Assembly (NCBI RefSeq): GCF_003201835.2
Contig: NZ_CP029289.2
Span: 2,510,378 to 2,534,377, forward strand
Source: Acidianus brierleyi
GTDB lineage: Archaea; Thermoproteota; Thermoprotei_A; Sulfolobales; Sulfolobaceae
Length of the DNA stretch: 24,000 nucleotides
Direction of reading: 5' to 3'
Below the pieces are notes generated by a model. That model was not told the origin of the DNA. It was given only the letters and a program-made list of their open reading frames with translations, and searched no databases. Each line of letters begins with the position of its first letter. Within the stretch, counting starts at the first letter, position 1. Positions 1-24,000 of this stretch are shown here, piece by piece. A program made the translations under genes and the position numbers.

Positions 1-165
1 TGCTCCTGTCGGTTCGACCACTATTGTGTTTAGTTTCACTTTTAGTATTTCTTCATAACCCTTCTTGTTGTTCTCGTAGACCCTCCCCTCACTCGTTACT
101 AGATGATCTTTTGATATGTCTATTCCTAGGATCCCTACCTCTTTATCACACCTATATCCGTGCAT
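1..165 (-). CDS. IS110-family (DEDD-type) transposase/recombinase, N-terminal 55 codons only; the CDS runs off the left edge of the window
   Basis: Absent from the ORF track because it is short. Reverse-strand translation from ATG at 165-163 is open to position 1: MHGYRCDKEVGILGIDISKDHLVTSEGRVYENNKKGYEEILKVKLNTIVVEPTGA. The GIDxSK...hhhhE(A/P)TG pattern is the characteristic N-terminus of the IS110 DEDD domain (compare IS621 GIDTAKEKL...CIEATGTY). Confidence 0.75.
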   Translation of the reverse strand, partial: MHGYRCDKEVGILGIDISKDHLVTSEGRVYENNKKGYEEILKVKLNTIVVEPTGA

Positions 166-294
166 ATTATCACAATGTTCAGTCCGATAGTAGGGATTTG
201 TCACGCCCCCTCTCGAAGACTTTGCTTCAGTCAAAGGGTCGACCATGTTTCCCAGTTGGAGAGTATTACTCTCCCCAACTAATTAATCTATATA
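166..294 (-). ncRNA. 5' non-coding leader directly upstream of the IS110-family recombinase; candidate bridge-RNA-type region (extent uncertain)
   Basis: No plausible ORF. Contains an imperfect hairpin, agttgg(gg)agagt / actctccaact (about 258-284), and other short stems. IS110-group elements are known to encode their guide (bridge) RNA in the non-coding end upstream of the recombinase. Boundaries and transcription are not shown by the sequence alone. Confidence 0.3.
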
Positions 295-1012
295 GGTTCA
301 AAGGGGGCGGAAGACTCCATCCGTAAGGGTGGAGATGAATAGGCTCCACATGCTTCGCCTCTAACATGGCTAGGCGATAGCTTGAAGAGCCGAGGAAACC
401 ACTCGATAGAGGTTAACTTTAGGATCTTCACTTTGTATGTGTAATACTCTTTTTCTAATTCTTGAATTTTTCTATAATACGCGTTGTATTGTTAATTTTG
501 TTAGGAGATAGTGCGAACTAACTATGAGAACGTCCCCTTAAATTTTTGCACACTCCTACTCGGGATGTTGTCCCACATGTTAGATCGCGGGGGACGTATA
601 GCCAGCCTCCCACATGGGGTTTTATCCCCATGCCCACTTTCGGCTTGTGTTATTTTCTTGTTCTCTTTATAAAAGTTTTACTCTTGTAAGGCTTGTCTTC
701 TTGTTTAGGAGTGTTGTTCGTGAAAATCGCCGTAGGAGCCCCCTTTGTAGTTACATTTAAATACGTATTTTTCAAATATTCTCTTAATGGCAGTCACTGA
801 CGGAGTAAGCGTCACTGAGACGCCTTGGTTAAAGCGAGGGTCTATGTGGTACGCCTCTGCTCCATTCAACAGTCCCATATTGGGATACTGTGGGTTCACA
901 TTAGTGCTCGGGGTCGGAACGACCCTTAGTGCCTGTGGAGCTGAGACCTCTACCTTTGGCAAGCCTCGGCTTTGAAGCAGGAAGCCACGTCCGTTAGGGC
1001 GGAGTAGTTCAC
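295..1012 (-). repeat. GC-rich structured repeat, composite copy A: B-type interior (738-1003) plus C-type interior (341-737) plus shared 3' hairpin module (295-340)
   Basis: Read on the minus strand it starts GTGAACTAC (1012-1004) and ends ...CCCCCTTTGAACC (to 295). Positions 738-1012 are near-identical to 5203-5480 over about 250 nt; ORF-track peptides are identical on both strands. The ends of 341-737 match 9311-9493 (about 57 nt each side, 1-2 mismatches). Markedly more GC-rich than flanking DNA. Confidence 0.85.
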
Positions 1013-1883
1013 CATTGCCGCAATACCCCCAATTATACTTCTATTATTAAGAAGAAAAATGCCAGAGAGTATCAGATGGGCCGCCGAAGTAGGGAATAAG
1101 AAAAAAGTAGAGGAAGCCGTAAAGAGACTGGAGAAATGTGGCTTAGAACCTGAGGTTAATTTTGACGCAATTCAAGAAGACAAACCTACATTAAAGCAAA
1201 ATCTCAAAGCATTCTTCAGTAGGACATATGCTAGACAAGTAGCCTTCATTTTCTGGATTGGTGCAGCATACGCTTTGACAGTCAACTTAGTTTCAGTATA
1301 CTCTAGTAAGGTTCTCTCAGATTTAGGAGCTTCGTCCTTTGAATCCCTATTAGGTACTCTGAGTATAGATATTTTAGGAACTTTTGGAGTTTTAATAACA
1401 GTATTTGCGGCGGACAAATTAGGGAGAAAGGTCCTAGGCACACTAGGTTTTGGACTTTCTGCAATTCCATTGGCGGTACTTTACGTGGCCTATTTGATGG
1501 GTTTCCTATCGATTCCTTTAGTAGTAGCAATGTTCTCATTATTCTTCCTTATAAATGTAGGATTTGTAGGTACTTTACAATACGTTCCAGCAGGAGAAGT
1601 ATTTCCTACAAGATTAAGGGGACTATCAGTAGGTTGGGAGAAATTATTCGAATTCGGTTTAGCTTTGCCAGCATTGTCGTTGTATGCATTTCTAGGAGTA
1701 GCGAATTCATTACTTTATGATATAATAGTTGCAATAATTGCAGCAGCAATATATTACTTCCTCTCGTTAGAAACTAAACAAATGCCATTAGAAGAGATAC
1801 AAAGAAGATATACTGGAAATGAAGGAATACCTAGCTTTGCATTAAAAGACATAGCAAGAAGCAAGGATAAGGATAAGTTATAA
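1008..1883 (+). pseudogene. MFS sugar-porter-type transporter, C-terminal half only; truncated by the insertion ending at 1012
   Basis: ORF 1059-1883 begins MPESIRW (the PESPRW-like loop motif after TM6 of sugar porters), followed by about 6 hydrophobic segments. The frame is open upstream to 1008 (FTIAAIPPIILLLLRRK, TM6-like) and breaks exactly at the repeat terminus (1004-1012). No N-terminal half is present in the window. Confidence 0.7.
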
Positions 1884-4561: not shown

Positions 4562-5086
4562 TTATGTTTTTATTTTATCAGGAAAATATTTTAGGAATTT
4601 AGTAATCTTTGGATCTATTATCACTCTACAATAAGGATAATTTCTATGCTTATCGTAAAAGTTATGATGATAATCCTCTGCCTCATAAAAAGCTTCAAAA
4701 GGCACAACTTCCGTAACTACTTTTTTCCCTATTTTCTTTTCTACTTCTCTTATTATTTCCTCTGCAATTTTTCTTTGCTCGTCATTATGATATAATATTA
4801 TAGATCTATATTGTGAACCAACATCGTTACCTTGCCTGTTTGGAGTTGTAGGATCGTGAATAGAGAAGAAAATTTCCAAAATATCTCTAAAAGAAATAAT
4901 ATTAGGATCAAAAGTAATTTGGACTACTTCAGCATGTCCCGTTTTGTCCGTACATACATCCTCGTACGTTGGATTAGGCACTTTTCCTCCAGAATATCCT
5001 GGTTTAACCTCAATCACTCCCTTAACTCTAGAAAAAACTGCTTCAGTGCACCAGAAACATCCTCCGCCTAATGTTGCTTTTTCCAT
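4562..5086 (-). CDS. msrA: Peptide-methionine (S)-S-oxide reductase
   Basis: N-terminal [12 protein letters not shown] active-site motif, plus [32 protein letters not shown] and [19 protein letters not shown], all canonical MsrA blocks. Confidence 0.95.
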
Positions 5087-5202
5087 GAAAGATATATGAA
5101 GTAGCTAAAATTTAACTTAGTGTTAGAAAATTTAAAATAGTTGTTTTGAAAAGATTTACTATAAACCTTTGATGAAGTTTTTGGAAAACGAATATTGTTA
5201 TC

Positions 5203-5540
5203 GTGAACTACCATGCCCTAACGGGCGTGGCTTCCTGCTTCAAAGCCGAGGCTTGCCAAAGGTAGAGGTCTCAGCTCCACAGGCACTAAGGGTCGTTCCG
5301 ACCCCGAGCACTAATGTGAACCCACAGTATCCCAATATGGGACTGTTGAATGGAGCAGAGGCGTACCACATAGACCCTCGCTTTAACCAAGGCGTCTCAG
5401 TGACGCTTACTCCGTCAGTGACTGCCATTAAGAGAATATTTGAAAAATACGTATTTAAATGTAACCACAAAGGGGGCAATCCATCTCCACCCTTACGGAT
5501 GGAGTCTTCCACCCCCTTTGAACCCCTTGTTCAGATAAAA
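5203..5540 (+). repeat. GC-rich structured repeat, copy B (simple form: 5' GTGAACTAC, B-type interior, 3' hairpin CAAAGGGGG...CCCCCTTTG, tail GAACCCCTTGTTCAGATAAAA)
   Basis: Near-identical to the reverse complement of 738-1012. Dense local stems are visible: ccatgccc/gggcgtgg, gggtcg/cgaccc, gcgtc/gacgc and caaaggggg/ccccctttg. ORFs are open on both strands, with a composition unlike the local proteome. Confidence 0.85.
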
Positions 5541-5610
5541 TACTATCGGTAAGGTATATTGACAATTTTCATCTTAAATATTTAAGAACCGCACTTCAGA
5601 TTAATTATTT

Positions 5611-6798
5611 ATGAGTGAGGATTTAATCAAGGCGCTAATCAACAACGACGAATTCAATAAGAAGATAGCTAGTATAGTCTATGAAAAAATTAGAAACGAT
5701 GTTATATTGAATAAATTTGATGATATATATAAAATATTAAATGAGCTAACTAAATCTGTCCAAAAGAACACTGATCATATAATCCTTATATGGGAGAAAA
5801 TGGATCAAACTGATAAGACTATTAATAACATTATACAATCAATTAAGGATAACACTAACGCTATAAAGGAGATGCAAAATGAGGTAAGAACGTTAAATAT
5901 TACAACACAAAAACATACTGAAGCTATAGAGTCTCTTCAGAAAAATATTGATTCACATACGAAAGCAATAGAGACAATGCAGAAAACGTTAGAAAAGCAC
6001 AGTGAAATCATCGAAACACATACGAAAGCAATAGAGACAATGCAGAAAACGTTAGAAAAGCACAGTGAAATCATCGAAACACATACGAAAGCAATAGAGA
6101 CAATGCAGAAAACGTTAGAAAAGCACAGTGAAATCATCGAAACACATACGAAAGCAATAGAGACAATGCAGAAAACGTTAGAAAAGCACAGTGAAATCAT
6201 CGAAACACATACGAAAGCAATAGAGACAATGCAGAAAACGTTAGAAAAGCACAGTGAAATCATCGAAACACATACGAAAGCAATAGAGACAATGCAGAAA
6301 ACGTTAGAAAAGCACAGTGAAATCATCGAAACACATACGAAAGCAATAGAAGAACAATCTAAGGCAATAGAGAAGTTACAAAATGCGATTTTTAGACTAA
6401 GTACAGAGATAGGTGCGTTTACTAATAGAGCAGGTAAAGGTCTAGAGAAAAGTATAATGAATATATATAGAGAAGCGTTAAAATTACATGGTATAGATCC
6501 TTCTAACGTTAAACATGGTAAAATAAAGGATACCCTAGGAATAATAGATAAGGATAAGGAGTTTGAAGTAGACTTTTATGAGACCGATGATTACGTCTAT
6601 GTTTTTGAAGTTAAGAACTATGCAGATGAGGGAGTTTTAGAACAAATGAGAAATAGAATTAAATTGTTTTCCGCATTATATAAAAAGCCTATAAAATTCT
6701 ATATTATATCTAACTTTATAGAAAAATCTGTAAAAGAAGAAGCAGAAAAAGAAGCAGCAATAATTATTACATCTCATGTTGTAGAAGACGAAGCATAA
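5611..6798 (+). CDS. Coiled-coil protein with a 21-aa tandem-repeat array and a C-terminal PD-(D/E)XK-like domain (resembles the archaeal DUF3782 + PDDEXK_10 architecture)
   Basis: 395 aa. The N-terminal two thirds are heptad-like (KAIETMQKTLEKHSEIIETHT x6). The C-terminus, EFEVDFYETDDYVYVFEVKNYA...KFYIISNFIEKSVKEEAEKEAAIIIT, fits a D...(D/E)xK nuclease-fold core. The family assignment is from memory only. Confidence 0.7.
   Translation: MSEDLIKALINNDEFNKKIASIVYEKIRNDVILNKFDDIYKILNELTKSVQKNTDHIILIWEKMDQTDKTINNIIQSIKDNTNAIKEMQNEVRTLNITTQKHTEAIESLQKNIDSHTKAIETMQKTLEKHSEIIETHTKAIETMQKTLEKHSEIIETHTKAIETMQKTLEKHSEIIETHTKAIETMQKTLEKHSEIIETHTKAIETMQKTLEKHSEIIETHTKAIETMQKTLEKHSEIIETHTKAIEEQSKAIEKLQNAIFRLSTEIGAFTNRAGKGLEKSIMNIYREALKLHGIDPSNVKHGKIKDTLGIIDKDKEFEVDFYETDDYVYVFEVKNYADEGVLEQMRNRIKLFSALYKKPIKFYIISNFIEKSVKEEAEKEAAIIITSHVVEDEA
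5954..6350 (+). repeat. Perfect 63-bp tandem repeat, 6.3 copies, in frame inside the 5611-6798 CDS
   Basis: Units start at 5954, 6017, 6080, 6143, 6206, 6269 and 6332 (partial, 19 nt). Each encodes HTKAIETMQKTLEKHSEIIET. The antisense ORF 5937-6326 also repeats exactly, which indicates nucleotide identity between units. Confidence 0.95.
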
Positions 6799-9301: not shown

Positions 9302-9550
9302 GTGAACTCCTCCTACGGCGATTTTCACGAACAACACTCCTAAACAAGAAGACAAGCTTTACAAGAGTGAGACTAAGAAGACTAGGTATAGGGGAGGAGG
9401 TGGTGAAGGCCCTCAAGTTGACCCCAATCAAGTAGTTCCTTCGGCTCTTCAAGCTATCGCCTAGCCATGTTAGAGGCAAAGCATGTGGAGCCTATCCATC
9501 TCCACGGATGGAGTCTTTCGCCTCGTTTGAACCCCCTGTTAAGATAAAAA
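9302..9550 (+). repeat. GC-rich structured repeat, copy C (5' GTGAACTCC, C-type interior 9311-9493, shared 3' hairpin module, tail GAACCCCCTGTTAAGATAAAA)
   Basis: The first and last ~57 nt of the 9311-9493 interior match the reverse complement of the corresponding ends of 341-737, and the 3' module 9494-9535 matches 295-340. The middle differs (about 68 nt here versus about 280 nt in copy A). The 3' module also matches 5481-5526. Confidence 0.85.
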
Positions 9551-17617: not shown

Positions 17618-18403
17618 TTGTTTATTGTAGGAGACTTTATAATATTTACTGTACTTGGAGCTATTGTAGTATATATAATATCATTTGTATTTGTATTCCT
17701 AGCATATTCTAGACTTAGAGCAGGATTCGGAATATTGCAAAGTAATGGAAAAAATACCGGTTTAGGAAGAACTGGAGCCACTTTACTGTTAGTAGGTATG
17801 ATATTGGACGTTATCGGCGCAATACTCCTATTAGTGTTCGTGGGCATAGCGTTCTTAGCAATAGGTGCAATAATAGTAATTATAGGAGAAATACTAGTAG
17901 GAATAGGATTATATAATACAGGAAATGCATATAATGACGGCTTACTTAAAATAGGAGGTATATTAGTAGCAATCATCGTAACGGCTTTCATAGGTTACAT
18001 TTTAGCATACGTAAGTTTAGGTGGTATATTAGATAAGCTCAAGAGTGGGTCTTTCGTACCTTCACCAACTTATAGTCAACCAGGTACGCAATATCCTGGA
18101 ACACAACCAACGTTCTCCCAACCAAGCAATATATACCAAATAGGTACCGGCAATTTAAAGGCCAACGGAGAAGCTTACGTAGCAATTTATTCCCCTACTC
18201 CTATTCAAATAGTTTCAGCAGAAATAGTAGGAACATCGATGATAAGCTCATCTATAACTCCAAATCTTCTATCGCCTGGAAGCAATAATGTTACGATAAA
18301 CTTCGGAACAATAACTGGATTATTGCCAAATAACACATATACAATAAAACTTACTTTAGCAAATGGACAGACTATTGATACTATTGTTGCCTATCAACCA
18401 TAA
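17618..18403 (+). CDS. Membrane protein (about 5 TM) with a C-terminal extracellular-looking P/T/S/Q-rich and beta-rich domain; possibly DUF973-like; the N-terminus is probably mis-started or frameshifted
   Basis: Hydrophobic N-terminal half, then SPTYSQPGTQYPGTQPTFSQPSN and a beta-strand-like tail. The track start is TTG. The same frame is open upstream to 17465 and encodes a plausible N-terminus (NEIQGIENLRNGSLYLIISALL). Confidence 0.7.
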   Translation: MFIVGDFIIFTVLGAIVVYIISFVFVFLAYSRLRAGFGILQSNGKNTGLGRTGATLLLVGMILDVIGAILLLVFVGIAFLAIGAIIVIIGEILVGIGLYNTGNAYNDGLLKIGGILVAIIVTAFIGYILAYVSLGGILDKLKSGSFVPSPTYSQPGTQYPGTQPTFSQPSNIYQIGTGNLKANGEAYVAIYSPTPIQIVSAEIVGTSMISSSITPNLLSPGSNNVTINFGTITGLLPNNTYTIKLTLANGQTIDTIVAYQP

Positions 18404-18827: not shown

Positions 18828-18917
18828 TCAATGGTTATTTTAAGAGAAATGTAGGAATAGGATTATATAACTCAGGAAATGAATACAATGAAAAACTAAC
18901 TAAAATTAACGGAATTA
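18828..18917 (+). pseudogene. Decayed fragment paralogous to the 17618-18403 membrane protein gene
   Basis: agagaaatgtaggaataggattatataactcaggaaatgaatacaatga... aligns with 17888-17975 (ggagaaatactagtaggaataggattatataatacaggaaatgcatataatga...) at roughly three quarters identity. It carries a 3-nt indel and in-frame stops. Confidence 0.45.
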
Positions 18918-18926
18918 TGGTATCAA

Positions 18927-19262
18927 CCCAGTCTCATAAGGGGATACTGTAGGCTCACTGCTCGGAGTCGGAACGATCCTCATTGTCTTTGTAGAAATAT
19001 AAAAAATCTAATATGGTACTTGGAAATTTATAAAAATTATCATATAATTATCTAACTAATTACATTAAATCTTTACGAACCACTAATAACAAATAAAAAT
19101 TATTTTTACTAATTAGATTTTGGGTCTACCGTAACCAAGGCGGTGACGCTTACTCCGTCAGTGACTGCCATTAAGAGAATATTCGAAAAAAGAAGTATTA
19201 AGCCTTACAAAGGGGGCTATCTATCTCCACGGAGTCTTCCGCTCCCTTTGAACCCCTGATCA
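18927..19262. repeat. GC-rich structured repeat, copy D: decayed and rearranged (18927-18985 in minus orientation, 19131-19262 in plus orientation, AT-rich filler between)
   Basis: 18927-18985 matches the reverse complement of 5290-5350 with many substitutions. 19131-19262 matches 5384-5535, including the 3' hairpin (caaaggggg...ccctttgaacccctg), but has a 5-nt deletion relative to copy B (ggcgTCTCAgtgacgc versus ggcggtgacgc). Confidence 0.6.
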
Positions 19263-19358
19263 TAATAAAGTCTTATAGTGCAAACTTACAAGATTTTTGG
19301 CTCTTTACAGACAATATTCAACGAACAAAATTTAATATATGGATTTTTTATATCACTT

Positions 19359-21557
19359 ATGAAAGCTTACAAGATAATTTTTTCTGGTATAGTTCAAGGT
19401 GTAGGATTCAGGCCATTTATTTATAGAATAGCTGTTAAATCAGGAGTAAGAGGATACGTAAGGAATTTAGGAGGAAGCGAAGTAGAAGTCAAGATTGTAG
19501 GAAAAGAAGAAAATATAGCAGAATTCATGTCATTATTTTTCTTAAAATTACCTTCTCCTGCAAAAATAGAAAAAATTATAGTAGAAGATAGTGAAATAGA
19601 GAATTTTAAGGAATTCCAGATTTTAAAGAGCGGGAGCACAATTAAGGAAGTTGGAGAAATACCTCCGGACTTATCAGTATGTGACGAATGCATGAAGGAA
19701 GTTTTAAACGAAAAAGACAGACATTACATGTATCCATTTAATAGTTGCGCATACTGCGGACCAAAGTTTTCAATAATATATAAGTTACCCTACGATAGAG
19801 AAAACACTTCCATGAAAGATTTTCCTATGTGTTCTTCTTGTCAGAAAGAATATGAAGATCCGGAAAACGAAAGAAGATTTGACGCTCAAGGAATAAGCTG
19901 TCCAATTTGTGGACCTAAATTATTTCTCGAAGATATTAAAGGAGAAAGAATAGAAGGAGATCCTATAGCCCTTACTGCAAAGCTCATAGAAGAAGGAAAA
20001 ATAGTAGCAATTAAAGGCATTGGAGGATTCCACATAGCTATAGATCCGTTTAACGATGATGTAATTATAAGACTAAGAGAAAGAAAAAAGAGACCACAAC
20101 AACCTTTTGCCCTCATGGCAATCTCTACTGATGTCATAAAGAAATACGCAGAAGTGTCGGAAATAGAAGAAGAAATTCTACGTTCGCCGGAAAGACCAAT
20201 ATTACTACTCAAAAAAAGAGAATCAATTTCAAAATACATTTCCCCAGGATTGGACAGAGATGGATTTTTCCTTTATTATACTCCTCTACATTATCTCCTC
20301 CTCAACTCTCTGAAGAATAAAATTTCAGTGATGACAAGCGGAAATATTCACGGCTTACCTATGTGCATTGACGAAGAATGTGTTAAAGATAAATTGAAAG
20401 ACGTTGTGGATTACGTACTTTACCATAATAGGAAAATTGTTCACAGAGTTGACGATAGCGTAATGAGGATCTCATCACGAAGGATAATTATGTTACGAAG
20501 AAGTAGAGGATTTGCACCTACATGGATAAGAATAAAGAAGAAGGTGGAGCCAACAATAGCTTTAGGAGCAGAACTTCAAAACACTGGAGCAATAGCTTTT
20601 GACGATAAGGTTATACTCACACCTTATGTTGGAGATACTGACAAACTGGAAAACTTAGAAGAAATGGAAAACAGTATAAGGTTCCTTTTAAATACCTATT
20701 CAATAAAACCTAAATATGTAATAGCAGATAAAAATCCAGCTTATCAAAGCCTCAGACTAGCTAAAAAATTTTCAGAAGAATTTTCGGCTGAATTTTATCA
20801 AGTTCAGCACCATTTTGCTCATGGGTTAAGCGTAGCTGCAGAAAAAGGAGTAGATGAGGGAGTAATAATAGCTATAGACGGAATAGGTTATGGAGACGAT
20901 GGAAACGGTTGGGGAGGTGAGATAATAAAATTTGAAGGAAGTAAATATTCAAGAGAATATCACTTAAGGTATGTTAATTACGCAGGAGGAGACATAAACG
21001 CAAAGAAGCCCGATAGAATGTTAGCTTTATTCCTATCTAATTTCCTTTCGTGGGAAGAAATAAAAAAACATGTAAAACTATCTGAAAAAGAAATAAAAAT
21101 CCTAGAAATGCAATCAAAAAAATCGTCATTGTATACCTCAAGTGTTGGAAGATTTCTTGACGCAGTTTCGGCATTTTTAGATGTTTGCCATGAAAGAACA
21201 TATGAAGGAGAACCTGCAATAAAACTTGAGGCGATGAAAGGAAGAATATTAGATTTCGATTTCCCTATAAAAGGAGAAGAAATAGACACAATAGAAGCGT
21301 TCAAATGGTTTTTAAACAATAATTTAAGGAAAGAGGATATTGCTACAACCCTACAATATAAGCTAGGAGAAGCATTAGTTAATGCTGCCGAGAGACTGAA
21401 TCCGGAAAGAATCTTAGTTTCCGGAGGAGCTTCAGTAAACGAATATATATTAAAAGGTATATTAGACAACGCAAAAGCGGAAGTGTTAACGCTCAGTAAA
21501 GTTCCACCAGGAGACGGCGGAATATCTTTAGGTCAAAGTTACTTTAAAGTGTTGTAA
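19359..21557 (+). CDS. hypF: [NiFe]-hydrogenase maturation carbamoyltransferase HypF
   Basis: Acylphosphatase domain ([19 protein letters not shown]). Two zinc-finger pairs (CDECMKEV...CAYCGPKFS; CSSCQKEY...CPICGPKL). YrdC-like block ([16 protein letters not shown]), then a Kae1/HypF C-terminal block ([21 protein letters not shown]). ATG 19359 is preferred over the track's GTG 19278. Confidence 0.95.
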
Positions 21558-21574
21558 TATTCTATCGGATATAT

Positions 21575-24000
21575 CTTTCAATTCCTTTTTGGATGAAACT
21601 CCACTTTTTCGTAATTTCTCATAAAGCATTTAAAGATTTCTTTCAATTCCTTTTTGGATGAAACCCCGGCGAAGAGCCCTTGCTGGGCTCTCCCGGGTAC
21701 GAGGACTTTCAATTCCTTTTTGGATGAAACGTAGTTTAGGCGTAGAGTTGGAGGGCGTTATGCCCTACTTTCAATTCCTTTTTGGATGAAACTGCGTTGG
21801 TATGCAGAAATATTGCCTATAGTTACCGAAGACTTTCAATTCCTTTTTGGATGAAACAAATATTCAAACTGATAACGGCGGAATATATTTAGCTTACTCT
21901 TTCAATTCCTTTTTGGATGAAACGTATGGTATTATCAAATGGTGAAAAAAATGGGAAACGAAACCTTTCAATTCCTTTTTGGATAAAACTTGAGGACTTC
22001 CAGGGGGGATATTACTATATCCCCTACAACTTTCAATTCCTTCTTGGATAAAACTTATTCAACACCTGCAGCAAGGTATCCAGCTAATTCAACTTTCAAT
22101 TCCTTCTTGGATGAAACAAAAGGTCTAATTCAAAGAAAGAGCGTAAAGGATATCATAAACTTTCAATTCCTTCTTGGATGAAACATTGTAAATGGGTTTA
22201 GCCCAAGCATGTTAAGTCAAAATTCCTTTCAATTCCTTCTTGGATGAAACTTATGAGTTTAAGAGAGACGCCATAAGGAAGCTAATGGAAAAATACTTTC
22301 AATTCCTTCTTGGATGAAACAATGAATAAGTATGTGACAAACGGGTTCAGCCCGAGTATGATACTTTCAATTCCTTCTTGGATGAAACATACTATACGTA
22401 TCGTATGACGACGGGTTTGAAAAAGACTTCTTTCAATTCCTTCTTGGATGAAACACATGATGAATATGAACCGTTTGCAAGCGCTAAATTAGAAATCTTT
22501 CAATTCCTTCTTGGATGAAACCTGAGGTTATTGTCTTAAAACTTAATGATTTTGATAAGATAACTTTCAATTCCTTCTTGGATGAAACTTCTTCTCCTCC
22601 GACATGTCTCATTCACCTCTCATATTTAACACTTTCAATTCCTTCTTGGATGAAACCTGTTTATTTCTTTTAATTCCAATAGATTTTTTGTACTGATTCT
22701 TTCAATTCCTTCTTGGATGAAACCATTTAAATATTAGTTAGGTCTTAATGTAACATGATAAACACTTTCAATTCCTTCTTGGATGAAACAAGTGATGGCA
22801 AGGGAAGGCACAAAAATGATGAGTATTGACTTTCAATTCCTTCTTGGATGAAACCTTATATCATTCGGCTGTTCCTCTGGGGTCTATAGAAAAACCTTTC
22901 AATTCCTTCTTGGATGAAACTACAATACGGTTCATTACCAGACGCGTTAATAAAATCACTTTCAATTCCTTCTTGGATGAAACTCAAAATAAGTCAAATT
23001 TAGATCAACAATTAAATCAAATTTTCTTTCAATTCCTTCTTGGATGAAACTAAAATCAAGGGGGGAAATATGGTTGAGTTTAACAAAGCGGCTTTCAATT
23101 CCTTCTTGGATGAAACATATCGATTTGTCACATAAGAATTTTGACTTTTTAACTTTCAATTCCTTCTTGGATGAAACGTCCCTAAGTGAATTACTTAGGG
23201 ACATAGTGTTTGAATATATCTTTCAATTCCTTCTTGGATGAAACTTCCCAAAGAATGCCAATGGGTGGCGGAGCTGGAAAAAATTCTTTCAATTCCTTCT
23301 TGGATGAAACATAAATTCATTAACTACCGTAACCGTTGGGCAATATATAACTGCCTTTCAATTCCTTCTTGGATGAAACCTTAAAGAAATTGCAAATTGG
23401 GTTGGGGCAAGATCATTTAGCTTTCAATTCCTTCTTGGATGAAACATAATGACATACTAGTAATAGTGTACCCAAGTCTGCATGATATCTTTCAATTCCT
23501 TCTTGGATGAAACCTACTGAGCTCGAAAGTTTTGGGTGTGCCTCTGGGGTCTATCTTTCAATTCCTTCTTGGATGAAACAGTAAGGACTTACAGTGCGGA
23601 AACCGGGAAACCGGTGGCCTTTCAATTCCTTCTTGGATGAAACTTGCTACCTTCATTTGTGAGCCACCTCAACGACAATTATTTCTTTCAATTCCTTCTT
23701 GGATGAAACAGGAGGACTATAAACGCACTATATATTGACGTTGTAATGATCTTTCAATTCCTTCTTGGATGAAACACAAAAAGGGATGGAGGTTTTTTTA
23801 CAACCTCCTAAAAAAGACTTTCAATTCCTTCTTGGATGAAACTCTTCTGCTTCCATAAAATCATATCCAGCAAAAAGTTTTCGCTTTCAATTCCTTCTTG
23901 GATGAAACAGAAAAATTAAAGATAAAATTAGCTAAAGAATAATAAATCTTTCAATTCCTTCTTGGATGAAACCTATTTAGTGTCACAATGCAACGACTGG
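21575..24000 (-). CRISPR. CRISPR array, 37 repeats of 25 nt in the window (it continues past 24000), spacers 36-45 nt. Transcribed-strand repeat is GTTTCATCCAAGAAGGAATTGAAAG
   Basis: Repeats start at 21575, 21640, 21706, 21768, 21833, 21899, 21965, 22030, 22093, 22160, 22226, 22296, 22364, 22430, 22497, 22564, 22632, 22699, 22765, 22830, 22896, 22959, 23026, 23092, 23153, 23220, 23286, 23355, 23421, 23489, 23555, 23619, 23685, 23751, 23818, 23884 and 23948. The minus-strand reading ends in ATTGAAAG, the known 8-nt crRNA 5' handle source in Sulfolobales. Variant repeats at the 21575 end mark the trailer. Confidence 0.98.

Follow-up and report, generated by a model that had tools for sequence, protein, structure and literature searches.

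A GC-rich island in Acidianus brierleyi is very probably a TnpB-less miniature derivative of an IS200/IS605 element

An isolated GC-rich island lies between msrA and a gene for a repeat-rich coiled-coil protein in the genome of the archaeon Acidianus brierleyi (Sulfolobaceae). It was studied within a stretch of 24,000 nucleotides (assembly GCF_003201835.2, contig NZ_CP029289.2, positions 2,510,378 to 2,534,377 of the forward strand), referred to below as the window and numbered from its first letter. The island, termed copy B, is very probably a non-autonomous miniature derivative of a ~1.3 kb Sulfolobales insertion sequence (IS) of the IS200/IS605 type that carries tnpB only; that is, a palindrome-associated transposable element (PATE) or, in the loose sense, a miniature inverted-repeat transposable element (MITE). 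It is a selfish element of an already described sort and does not represent a new RNA gene of the cell. From the parent IS it appears to have kept the hairpin of the left end (LE), the tnpB promoter and start codon, and a ~105-nt segment of the right end (RE) that corresponds to the ω-RNA scaffold, the body of tnpB having been replaced by a 5′ module specific to the short elements. The evidence consists of homology at both ends to full-length elements, a TTTAT flank, many dispersed near-identical copies, an RNA structure with a pseudoknot on the minus strand, and a lack of coding constraint. What looked like an orphan structured-RNA gene is explained in this way as a transposon derivative, and copy B should accordingly be annotated neither as a cellular non-coding RNA nor as a 127-aa hypothetical protein.

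The GC content is 0.44–0.48 in the intervals at 5101–5550, compared with 0.26–0.37 in the adjoining 300-nt intervals; for 5203–5534 taken as a whole it is 48%. The island is bordered by msrA (4562–5086, minus strand; Pfam PMSR) and the coiled-coil open reading frame (ORF) at 5611–6798. A preliminary description, made from the letters of the window alone, had treated it as a stand-alone GC-rich element of about 340 nt. The island is real, but it does not stand alone: it is the ω-RNA end of a tnpB-only IS200/IS605 element, and its proper extent is 5203–5534. The same description had invoked the local GC spike as a predictor of RNA genes. Taken alone, the spike does not indicate a host RNA gene, because it is a property of the element wherever this is located, including the 47%-GC-like context of Metallosphaera.

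The parentage of copy B is apparent from its relatives. A scan of species-representative genomes for the conserved terminal hairpin returned five loci in Metallosphaera yellowstonensis MK1 and one chance match. Two of the five (L001 and L003) are ~340-nt copies, 96% identical to copy B. The others (L004–L006) are ~1.3 kb elements in which the hairpin end stands just upstream of an ORF of 403–431 aa, and the other end of copy B is equivalent to the final ~105 nt of this ORF with a further 6 nt. Both the RE part (5202–5307) and the LE part (5426–5540) of copy B match the two ends of L004–L006; with 5191–5560 as the query, positions 12–117 and 236–350 align to 370–477 and 1585–1695 of L006. The sole ORF of the L006-type element encodes a 403-aa TnpB (Pfam OrfB_IS605, 1e-18; Cas12f1-like_TNB, 8e-20), whose stop codon is located 6 nt inward of the RE end, the final ~105 nt being common to copy B. 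More distantly, the RE part is ~73% identical to the 3′ end of ORF409 of Acidianus two-tailed virus (ATV), which is annotated as IS605 OrfB, and the hairpin end matches the region upstream of a transposase gene on the Sulfolobus tengchongensis plasmid pHGQ25. The LE hairpin is found directly upstream of tnpB in L004–L006 and in pHGQ25.

Read in the orientation of tnpB, which is the minus strand of the window for copy B and the plus strand for a second copy, copy A, the element reads CTGAACAAGGGGTTCAAAGGGGG ... GGTAGTTCAC, preceded on its 5′ side by TTTAT and followed by flanking DNA. Among the matches listed, nearly every copy has TTTAT or a near variant (ATTAT, CTTAT) immediately to the left of its LE, whether it comes from the window, M. 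yellowstonensis or metagenomes. A classical MITE was considered and rejected. The termini of copy B (CTGAACAAGG... and ...GTAGTTCAC) are not mutual inverted repeats but are accompanied by subterminal hairpins instead; no inverted repeat joins them within 5203–5540, and no flanking direct repeat can be read from the sequence. The LE hairpin, which had been recognised earlier as caaaggggg/ccccctttg, folds as DNA at −15 kcal/mol (z = −3.2), a value that 0 of 200 shuffles equalled. Copy B contains short ORFs only and no transposase or nuclease gene. A TATA-like box, TTTAAATA, is kept at equal spacing from the ATG in short copies and full-length IS. It is centred ~27 nt upstream of the ATG, as a Sulfolobales TATA box serving a leaderless transcript would be, and what is generally known of Sulfolobales promoters suggests that it acts as a promoter.

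The family is large. A metagenome scan with a 20-nt block from the RE region returned at least 120 loci, apparently mostly from hot-spring samples, to judge by the contig names. Together with the M. yellowstonensis loci, those listed give a tally of at least 128 matches. Among the 128 listed, at least 46 lie inside long tnpB ORFs and at least 40 are short copies with the 5′ module of copy B; a further 13 are at contig edges and 29 are degenerate or of other kinds. Short and full-length forms occur together in M. yellowstonensis (L001 and L003 with L004–L006) and on single contigs, such as L112. Hot-spring metagenomes, M. yellowstonensis and this AT-rich genome all contain copies with 96% identity or more to copy B, which points to horizontal spread in the recent past. 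The 5′ module found no match in the viral contigs scanned, and there is thus no sign of viruses carrying the short form.

Similarity between the short copies and full-length IS starts at about −107 from the RE end, from which it follows that copy B keeps almost exactly one ω-RNA scaffold. The fold of this region was derived from an alignment of 23 distinct short copies, running from the retained ATG to the RE end and designated A2. RNAalifold predicted 62 pairs on A2 and, with the pseudoknot written in, 98.9% of the 1418 cells are standard pairs. When the partners were slid by 1–3 columns, 40–46% of cells were paired, and the observed pairing/covariation score was reached by 0 of 500 column shuffles. 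Both-side changes occur in 7 pairs of A2. The stem GGGUCG/CGACCC has a C-G pair switched to G-C in 7 sequences, while the stem AGCUGAG/CUCGGCU is replaced by AGCUCCGCC/GGUGGGGCU or AGCUUCACC/GGUGGAGUU in other copies. The latter stem encloses a variable hairpin whose sequence is unrelated between lineages yet always self-complementary (CC-UUU-GG, CCAUUGG/CCAAUGG and CCAGUAC/GUACUGG in different lineages). In the RE hairpin, all 8 pairs vary and 98.4% of cells are still paired; one pair is changed on both sides and 7 show one-sided G-C/G-U changes, and the hairpin is fully compensated in ATV and pHGQ25. The stems that had been picked out by eye in the preliminary description are all present. 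The ccatgccc/gggcgtgg stem corresponds to the RE hairpin and gggtcg/cgaccc to the stem bearing the pseudoknot loop, and both covary across homologues; the gcgtc/gacgc stem and a long-range 12-mer pairing are not favoured by the family alignment.

The structure can be assigned to a strand. The same consensus is 98.7% paired on the minus strand and 83.8% on the complementary strand, with 219 G-U cells accounting for the difference, and it therefore belongs to the tnpB-sense strand, opposite to the one first read. Folded singly, copy B surpasses its shuffles only mildly, whichever strand is taken (z = −2.3 and −3.1); the real support for an RNA structure comes from the family alignment. Rfam gave nothing at gathering score in the whole window and chance-level hits only for the regions of copies A and B (E ≥ 1.9), and ARAGORN detected no tRNA or tmRNA in the window. 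The element matches no known Rfam family and has no MITE-type terminal inverted repeats. The initial suggestion of a structured RNA or a MITE-like repeat holds on both counts, since copy B belongs to a many-copy miniature element and has a conserved RNA body with compensatory changes and a pseudoknot.

The pseudoknot links the two extremities of the scaffold. The GA(A/G)C loop of its first stem complements a G(U/C)UC motif located at −6 to −3 from the guide, and the variable position covaries, being G-C in 14, A-U in 8 and G-U in 1 of the A2 sequences. In the 109 unique sequences listed, short and full-length, there are about 57 G-C, 31 A-U, 6 G-U and 0 A-C combinations. Beyond the scaffold, mean pairwise identity falls from 0.82 to 0.196 within the next 20 nt. 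This flank, by analogy with the TnpB literature, would serve as the guide. The 20-nt flank of copy B is unique in the window, and in a search of the window the predicted guides of copies A and B matched their own flanks only.

Copy B might be maintained in the following way, as work on IS608, ISDra2 and ISGst suggests. A Y1 TnpA made elsewhere in the genome would move it as single-stranded DNA, inserting it 3′ of TTTAT without target duplication. The retained promoter would drive a leaderless RNA of ~226 nt across the right end into the flank. TnpB from a full-length copy would bind the scaffold of this RNA in trans, with 16–20 nt of flank as the guide, and would cut the emptied donor site, composed of TTTAT and the right flank (for copy B TTTAT + GATAACAATATTCGTTTTCC; target GATAACAATATTCG...). 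Recombinational repair of the cut site would then restore the element.

Several points weigh against the derivation of copy B from a tnpB-only IS, or against the part assigned to its RNA. The 24-kb window contains neither tnpB nor tnpA, the partners required in trans; a cognate tnpB is present in M. yellowstonensis and in metagenome contigs. The 5′ module shows no significant similarity to the tnpB genes of L006, ATV and pHGQ25, local alignment scores lying within the shuffle range. A simple internal-deletion origin is ruled out, as the module is unlike any part of those genes. Two further derivatives in the window, copies C and D, lack the scaffold, which is thus not required for the persistence of every derivative. 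Finally, the apparent covariation of the pseudoknot could stem partly from two co-inherited lineages. The existence of mosaic copies, in which a GGGAA loop and a GUUC tail occur in an otherwise GGGAG-type sequence, together with the 6 G-U cases, indicates that the pattern is more than two co-inherited haplotypes.

The 5′ module raises an alternative that may be entertained, although we consider it rather improbable, namely that the short copies form a distinct, horizontally spreading ‘guide-RNA-only’ family parasitising TnpB, with the module as an acquired functional RNA domain in place of the protein gene. It is found directly upstream of the scaffold in all of the at least 40 listed copies that carry it, and is the best-conserved region of the family: mean pairwise identity is 0.88 in the 5′ module, 0.82 in the scaffold, 0.72 in the promoter, 0.70 in the LE and 0.20 in the 20-nt flank. 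Its predicted helices are 97–100% paired, mostly with one-sided C/U changes. Such conservation could reflect function, or could reflect only the lack of an IS counterpart from which diversity might be imported by recombination. Were the short copies a guide-RNA-only family, the module might stabilise the transcript at high temperature, direct its processing or loading onto TnpB, or out-compete the ω-RNAs of full-length elements. The module is the sole part of copy B that could hold something new.

It is unlikely that copy B is an inert relic, that is, a decaying fragment without a functional RNA, whose structure reflects recent spread and inheritance from the parent IS. Many copies are evidently young, those designated A and B being 98% identical to each other and those of M. 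yellowstonensis 96% identical to copy B; the scaffold-less copies C and D persist as well, and the conservation of the 5′ module is possible simply for want of an IS counterpart to recombine with. However, copies differing by up to ~20% retain 98.9% of pairs, with compensatory and G-U-preserving changes, in addition to the pseudoknot, and at least 40 independent short copies have kept the spacing of the promoter as well as the exact ~105-nt scaffold.

Recruitment by the host, with copy B or its promoter co-opted to act on, or read into, msrA 117 nt downstream, is very unlikely. The RNA strand of copy B has the orientation of msrA and copy A likewise points into an adjoining transporter ORF, but near-identical copies are found at unrelated sites in other genomes, nothing about the arrangement is specific to the locus, and msrA has an AT-rich upstream region of its own.

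The coding potential of copy B was also evaluated. ORFs are open on both strands, as had been noted before, at 127 aa (plus) and 90 aa (minus), and the retained ATG opens an ORF of 62–80 codons (MAVTDGASVTETPRLKRGS...) in most copies. Among the alternative codons at its first 31 positions, a fraction of 0.21 is synonymous (random expectation 0.24), with the same outcome in the other two frames, and variable sites are distributed 12/8/9 over the codon positions. Codon-like, period-3 conservation, the check set beforehand for a protein, is thus not seen, and the original verdict that this is not a protein gene is borne out. The protein reading was rejected for both the 127-aa plus-strand ORF and the 62–80 codon minus-strand ORF, the frame of the ATG being without codon-like constraint. 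That the latter specifies a functional small protein is highly improbable. Of the 23 copies in the alignment, 22 have it open, in many cases as far as the element's end, and the three indels of its first half have lengths divisible by three; on the other hand, quite apart from the codon statistics, the variable hairpin differs in length in ways that shift the frame and give differing C-termini, stops occur at codon 39 or 65 in some copies, and there is no Pfam match. A structured RNA on the plus strand is scarcely credible, for although the plus strand of copy B, taken singly, has a slight folding advantage over shuffles (z = −3.1), its pairing on the family alignment suffers as the 219 G-U cells become A-C, and the promoter and ATG face the other way.

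The features of copy B and the other family members in the window are listed in Table 1.

Table 1. Positions of copy B, its parts and related sequences in the window
Feature	Position	Strand	Remarks
Copy B, complete 332-bp PATE	5203..5534	-	RE at 5203, LE at 5534; boundaries from family alignment and matches at both ends to M. yellowstonensis L001, L003-L006
Flanking TTTAT (plus strand: ATAAA), outside the element	5535..5539	-	Target/transposon-adjacent motif
LE subterminal hairpin	5468..5520	-	CAAAGGGGG...CCCCCUUUG with inner CUCCAUCC/GGGUGGAG stem; DNA fold
TATA-like box TTTAAATA, retained tnpB promoter (predicted)	5452..5459	-	Centred ~27 nt upstream of ATG
PATE-specific 5′ module, ~120 nt	5310..5428	-	Starts at retained ATG (5428); predicted long three-part hairpin and two small hairpins
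ω-RNA scaffold, ~105 nt, common to 3′ end of tnpB in full-length IS	5203..5309	-	93-95% identity to L004-L006; stems covary between lineages
Pseudoknot arm 1, loop GAAC of GGGUCG/CGACCC stem	5295..5298	-	-96 to -93 from RE end; pairs with 5205-5208
Pseudoknot arm 2, GUUC	5205..5208	-	-6 to -3 from guide; pairs with 5295-5298
RE subterminal hairpin	5211..5230	-	CCACGCCC-GUUA-GGGCAUGG in tnpB sense; last scaffold stem, presumed TnpA recognition hairpin
Predicted guide of copy B (GAUAACAAUAUUCGUUUUCC)	5183..5202	-	DNA just past RE; similarity between copies stops right after ...GTAGTTCAC
Copy A	295..1012	+	LE terminus cut at 295 by adjacent element; ATG 787, RE end 1012, predicted guide 1013-1032
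Copy C	9302..9543	-	Same LE terminus, TTTAT flank and ...GAGTTCAC right end; body matches copy A insert; no ω-RNA scaffold
Copy D, 149-bp deletion derivative	19116..19264	-	LE, degraded promoter, first ~38 nt of 5′ module, alternative end GTTACGGTAGACCCAAAATC; no scaffold
Fragment E, degenerate	18929..18994	+	66 nt, 76% identity; end of 5′ module and start of scaffold

Near-identity of some 250 nt between copies A and B had been reported in the preliminary description, and the match in fact covers 278 nt of copy B (5200–5477), 98% identical to 738–1015 on the opposite strand; the end of copy A is at 1012 and not at 1015. Copy A carries an insert of ~390 nt (348–737) inside the loop of its LE hairpin. 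Among the 129 fetched loci this insert has no homologue besides L007, a metagenome contig that is the window's own sequence, though parts of it recur in copy C (9310–9374 and 9403–9505). It recalls the small elements inserted in PATE palindromes of Haloquadratum (PMC3119063). A 55-nt terminal segment of copy B recurs at 9495–9549 (copy C) and 19216–19270 (copy D). Copy D had been credited with a 5-nt indel relative to copy B; the two are instead separated by 3-nt and 10-nt gaps and a rearranged right end. Fragment E was absent from the earlier list of copies. The alternative right end GTTACGGTAGACCCAAAATC, found in copy D (19116–19135), L003 and L004, replaces the 3′ arm of the RE hairpin. What appears to be the end of another IS, with a 352-aa transposase-like ORF, comes after it in L003 and L004. 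The alternative end may be the footprint, or else the terminus, of a second element with the RE hairpin as its target.

At the left edge of the window (1–294, minus strand), a 55-aa ORF stub, MHGYRCDKEVGILGIDISKDHLVTSEGRVYENNKKGYEEILKVKLNTIVVEPTGA, extends beyond the first letter of the window. On visual inspection it looks like the N-terminus of a possible IS110-family DEDD transposase. Pfam and a plasmid tblastn gave no match to the stub (1–165), and a local tblastn only weak matches to the TnpB RuvC motif. Its 130-nt leader contains a strong hairpin and adjoins copy A exactly where the LE terminus of the latter is cut. If the stub is of the IS110 family, one would expect a bridge RNA in this leader, and the arrangement would represent insertion into the end of another transposon.

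On the other side of copy A, 46 nt past its right end, the ORF at 1059–1883 (plus strand) covers positions 191–451 of a 452-position sugar-transporter profile. It is N-terminally truncated and was possibly disrupted by insertions to its left. The predicted RNA of copy A points towards this ORF and that of copy B towards msrA on the same strand, the right end of copy B being 117 nt upstream of the msrA start codon; read-through into the neighbours of both copies is possible. The ORF on the far side of copy B (5611–6798) contains seven tandem 63-nt (21-codon) repeats at 5879–6445, up to 97% identical.

Elsewhere in the window, a 76-nt segment of the ORF at 17618–18403 (17897–17972) is repeated with 74% identity at 18851–18926, just before fragment E, which suggests a pseudogene remnant beside transposon debris. 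Repeats of the form CTTTCAATTCCTT(T/C)TTGGATGAAAC, at least 37 in number and spaced at 61–70 nt, make up a CRISPR array that occupies 21562–24000 and continues to the window end. It begins directly after hypF (19278–21557); the first six or seven repeats have T, the later ones C. No cas genes are present in the 24-kb window. The presence of five copies within 24 kb, beside a CRISPR array, suggests a variable region of the genome.

The element type to which copy B belongs, a PATE carrying an ω-RNA, is on record for haloarchaea and Geobacillus, and the parental solo-tnpB IS type for Sulfolobus islandicus. PATEs derived from IS605-type and IS1341-type transposons have been described in Haloquadratum walsbyi (PMC3119063). 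Like copy B, these have no terminal inverted repeats but near-terminal hairpins common to tnpB-carrying IS, are too short for a transposase and are found in many copies; some keep the C-terminal coding end of tnpB, and their palindromes receive insertions of other small elements, a situation resembling that of copy A. They differ in belonging to another phylum and in being unrelated in sequence, and copy B is distinguished by an end that is a structured RNA with a pseudoknot and by the extra 5′ module absent from the parent IS.

According to Meers et al. (2023; PMC10055086), PATEs often encode ω-RNAs, for which TnpB would have to be supplied in trans. The PATE-like elements of Geobacillus stearothermophilus reported there resemble copy B in being gene-less while keeping LE, RE and an ω-RNA that requires TnpB from elsewhere, their proposed role being guide-directed cutting of the emptied donor site. 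They are bacterial, have other motifs and belong to a family whose activity has been shown experimentally, whereas the archaeal family is described here from its sequences.

The solo-tnpB IS of S. islandicus REY15A has TTTAT as its left motif and a conserved RE, with hairpins near the 3′ end, followed by a non-conserved guide (Xu et al. 2023; PMC10640517). Compared by description, it shares with copy B the same TTTAT, the conserved RE with hairpins and the non-conserved sequence beyond, but it is full-length with tnpB, unlike copy B. SisTnpB1, which has been tested biochemically, represents the tnpA+tnpB branch with TTTAA (PMC10640517).

The ω-RNA of ISDra2 has a 116-nt scaffold with four stems and a pseudoknot of −5 to −3 with −103 to −105 (Nakagawa et al. 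2023; PMC10097598). It has in common with copy B a scaffold of ~105–116 nt that ends at the right end and contains several stems, and a pseudoknot between bases just upstream of the guide and a loop ~95–105 nt upstream. There is no sequence similarity; the position of the copy B pseudoknot, as predicted by covariation and not by a solved structure, matches that of ISDra2 in architecture.

SMN1, a 320-bp non-autonomous element of S. islandicus, is reported to be moved by ISC1733 (Berkner and Lipps 2007, as cited in PMC3718332). By that description, SMN1 comes from the same order of organisms as copy B, is similar in size (320 and 332 bp) and, as presumed for copy B, depends on an IS200/IS605-family element; copy B may belong or be related to the SMN1 family. 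ISC1733, which carries tnpA and tnpB, is longer, 1733 bp by its name. Set beside these systems, copy B provides a well-defined TnpB-less element of a thermophilic archaeon that keeps exactly the ω-RNA scaffold, with a covariation-supported fold, a pseudoknot, TTTAT and predicted guides.

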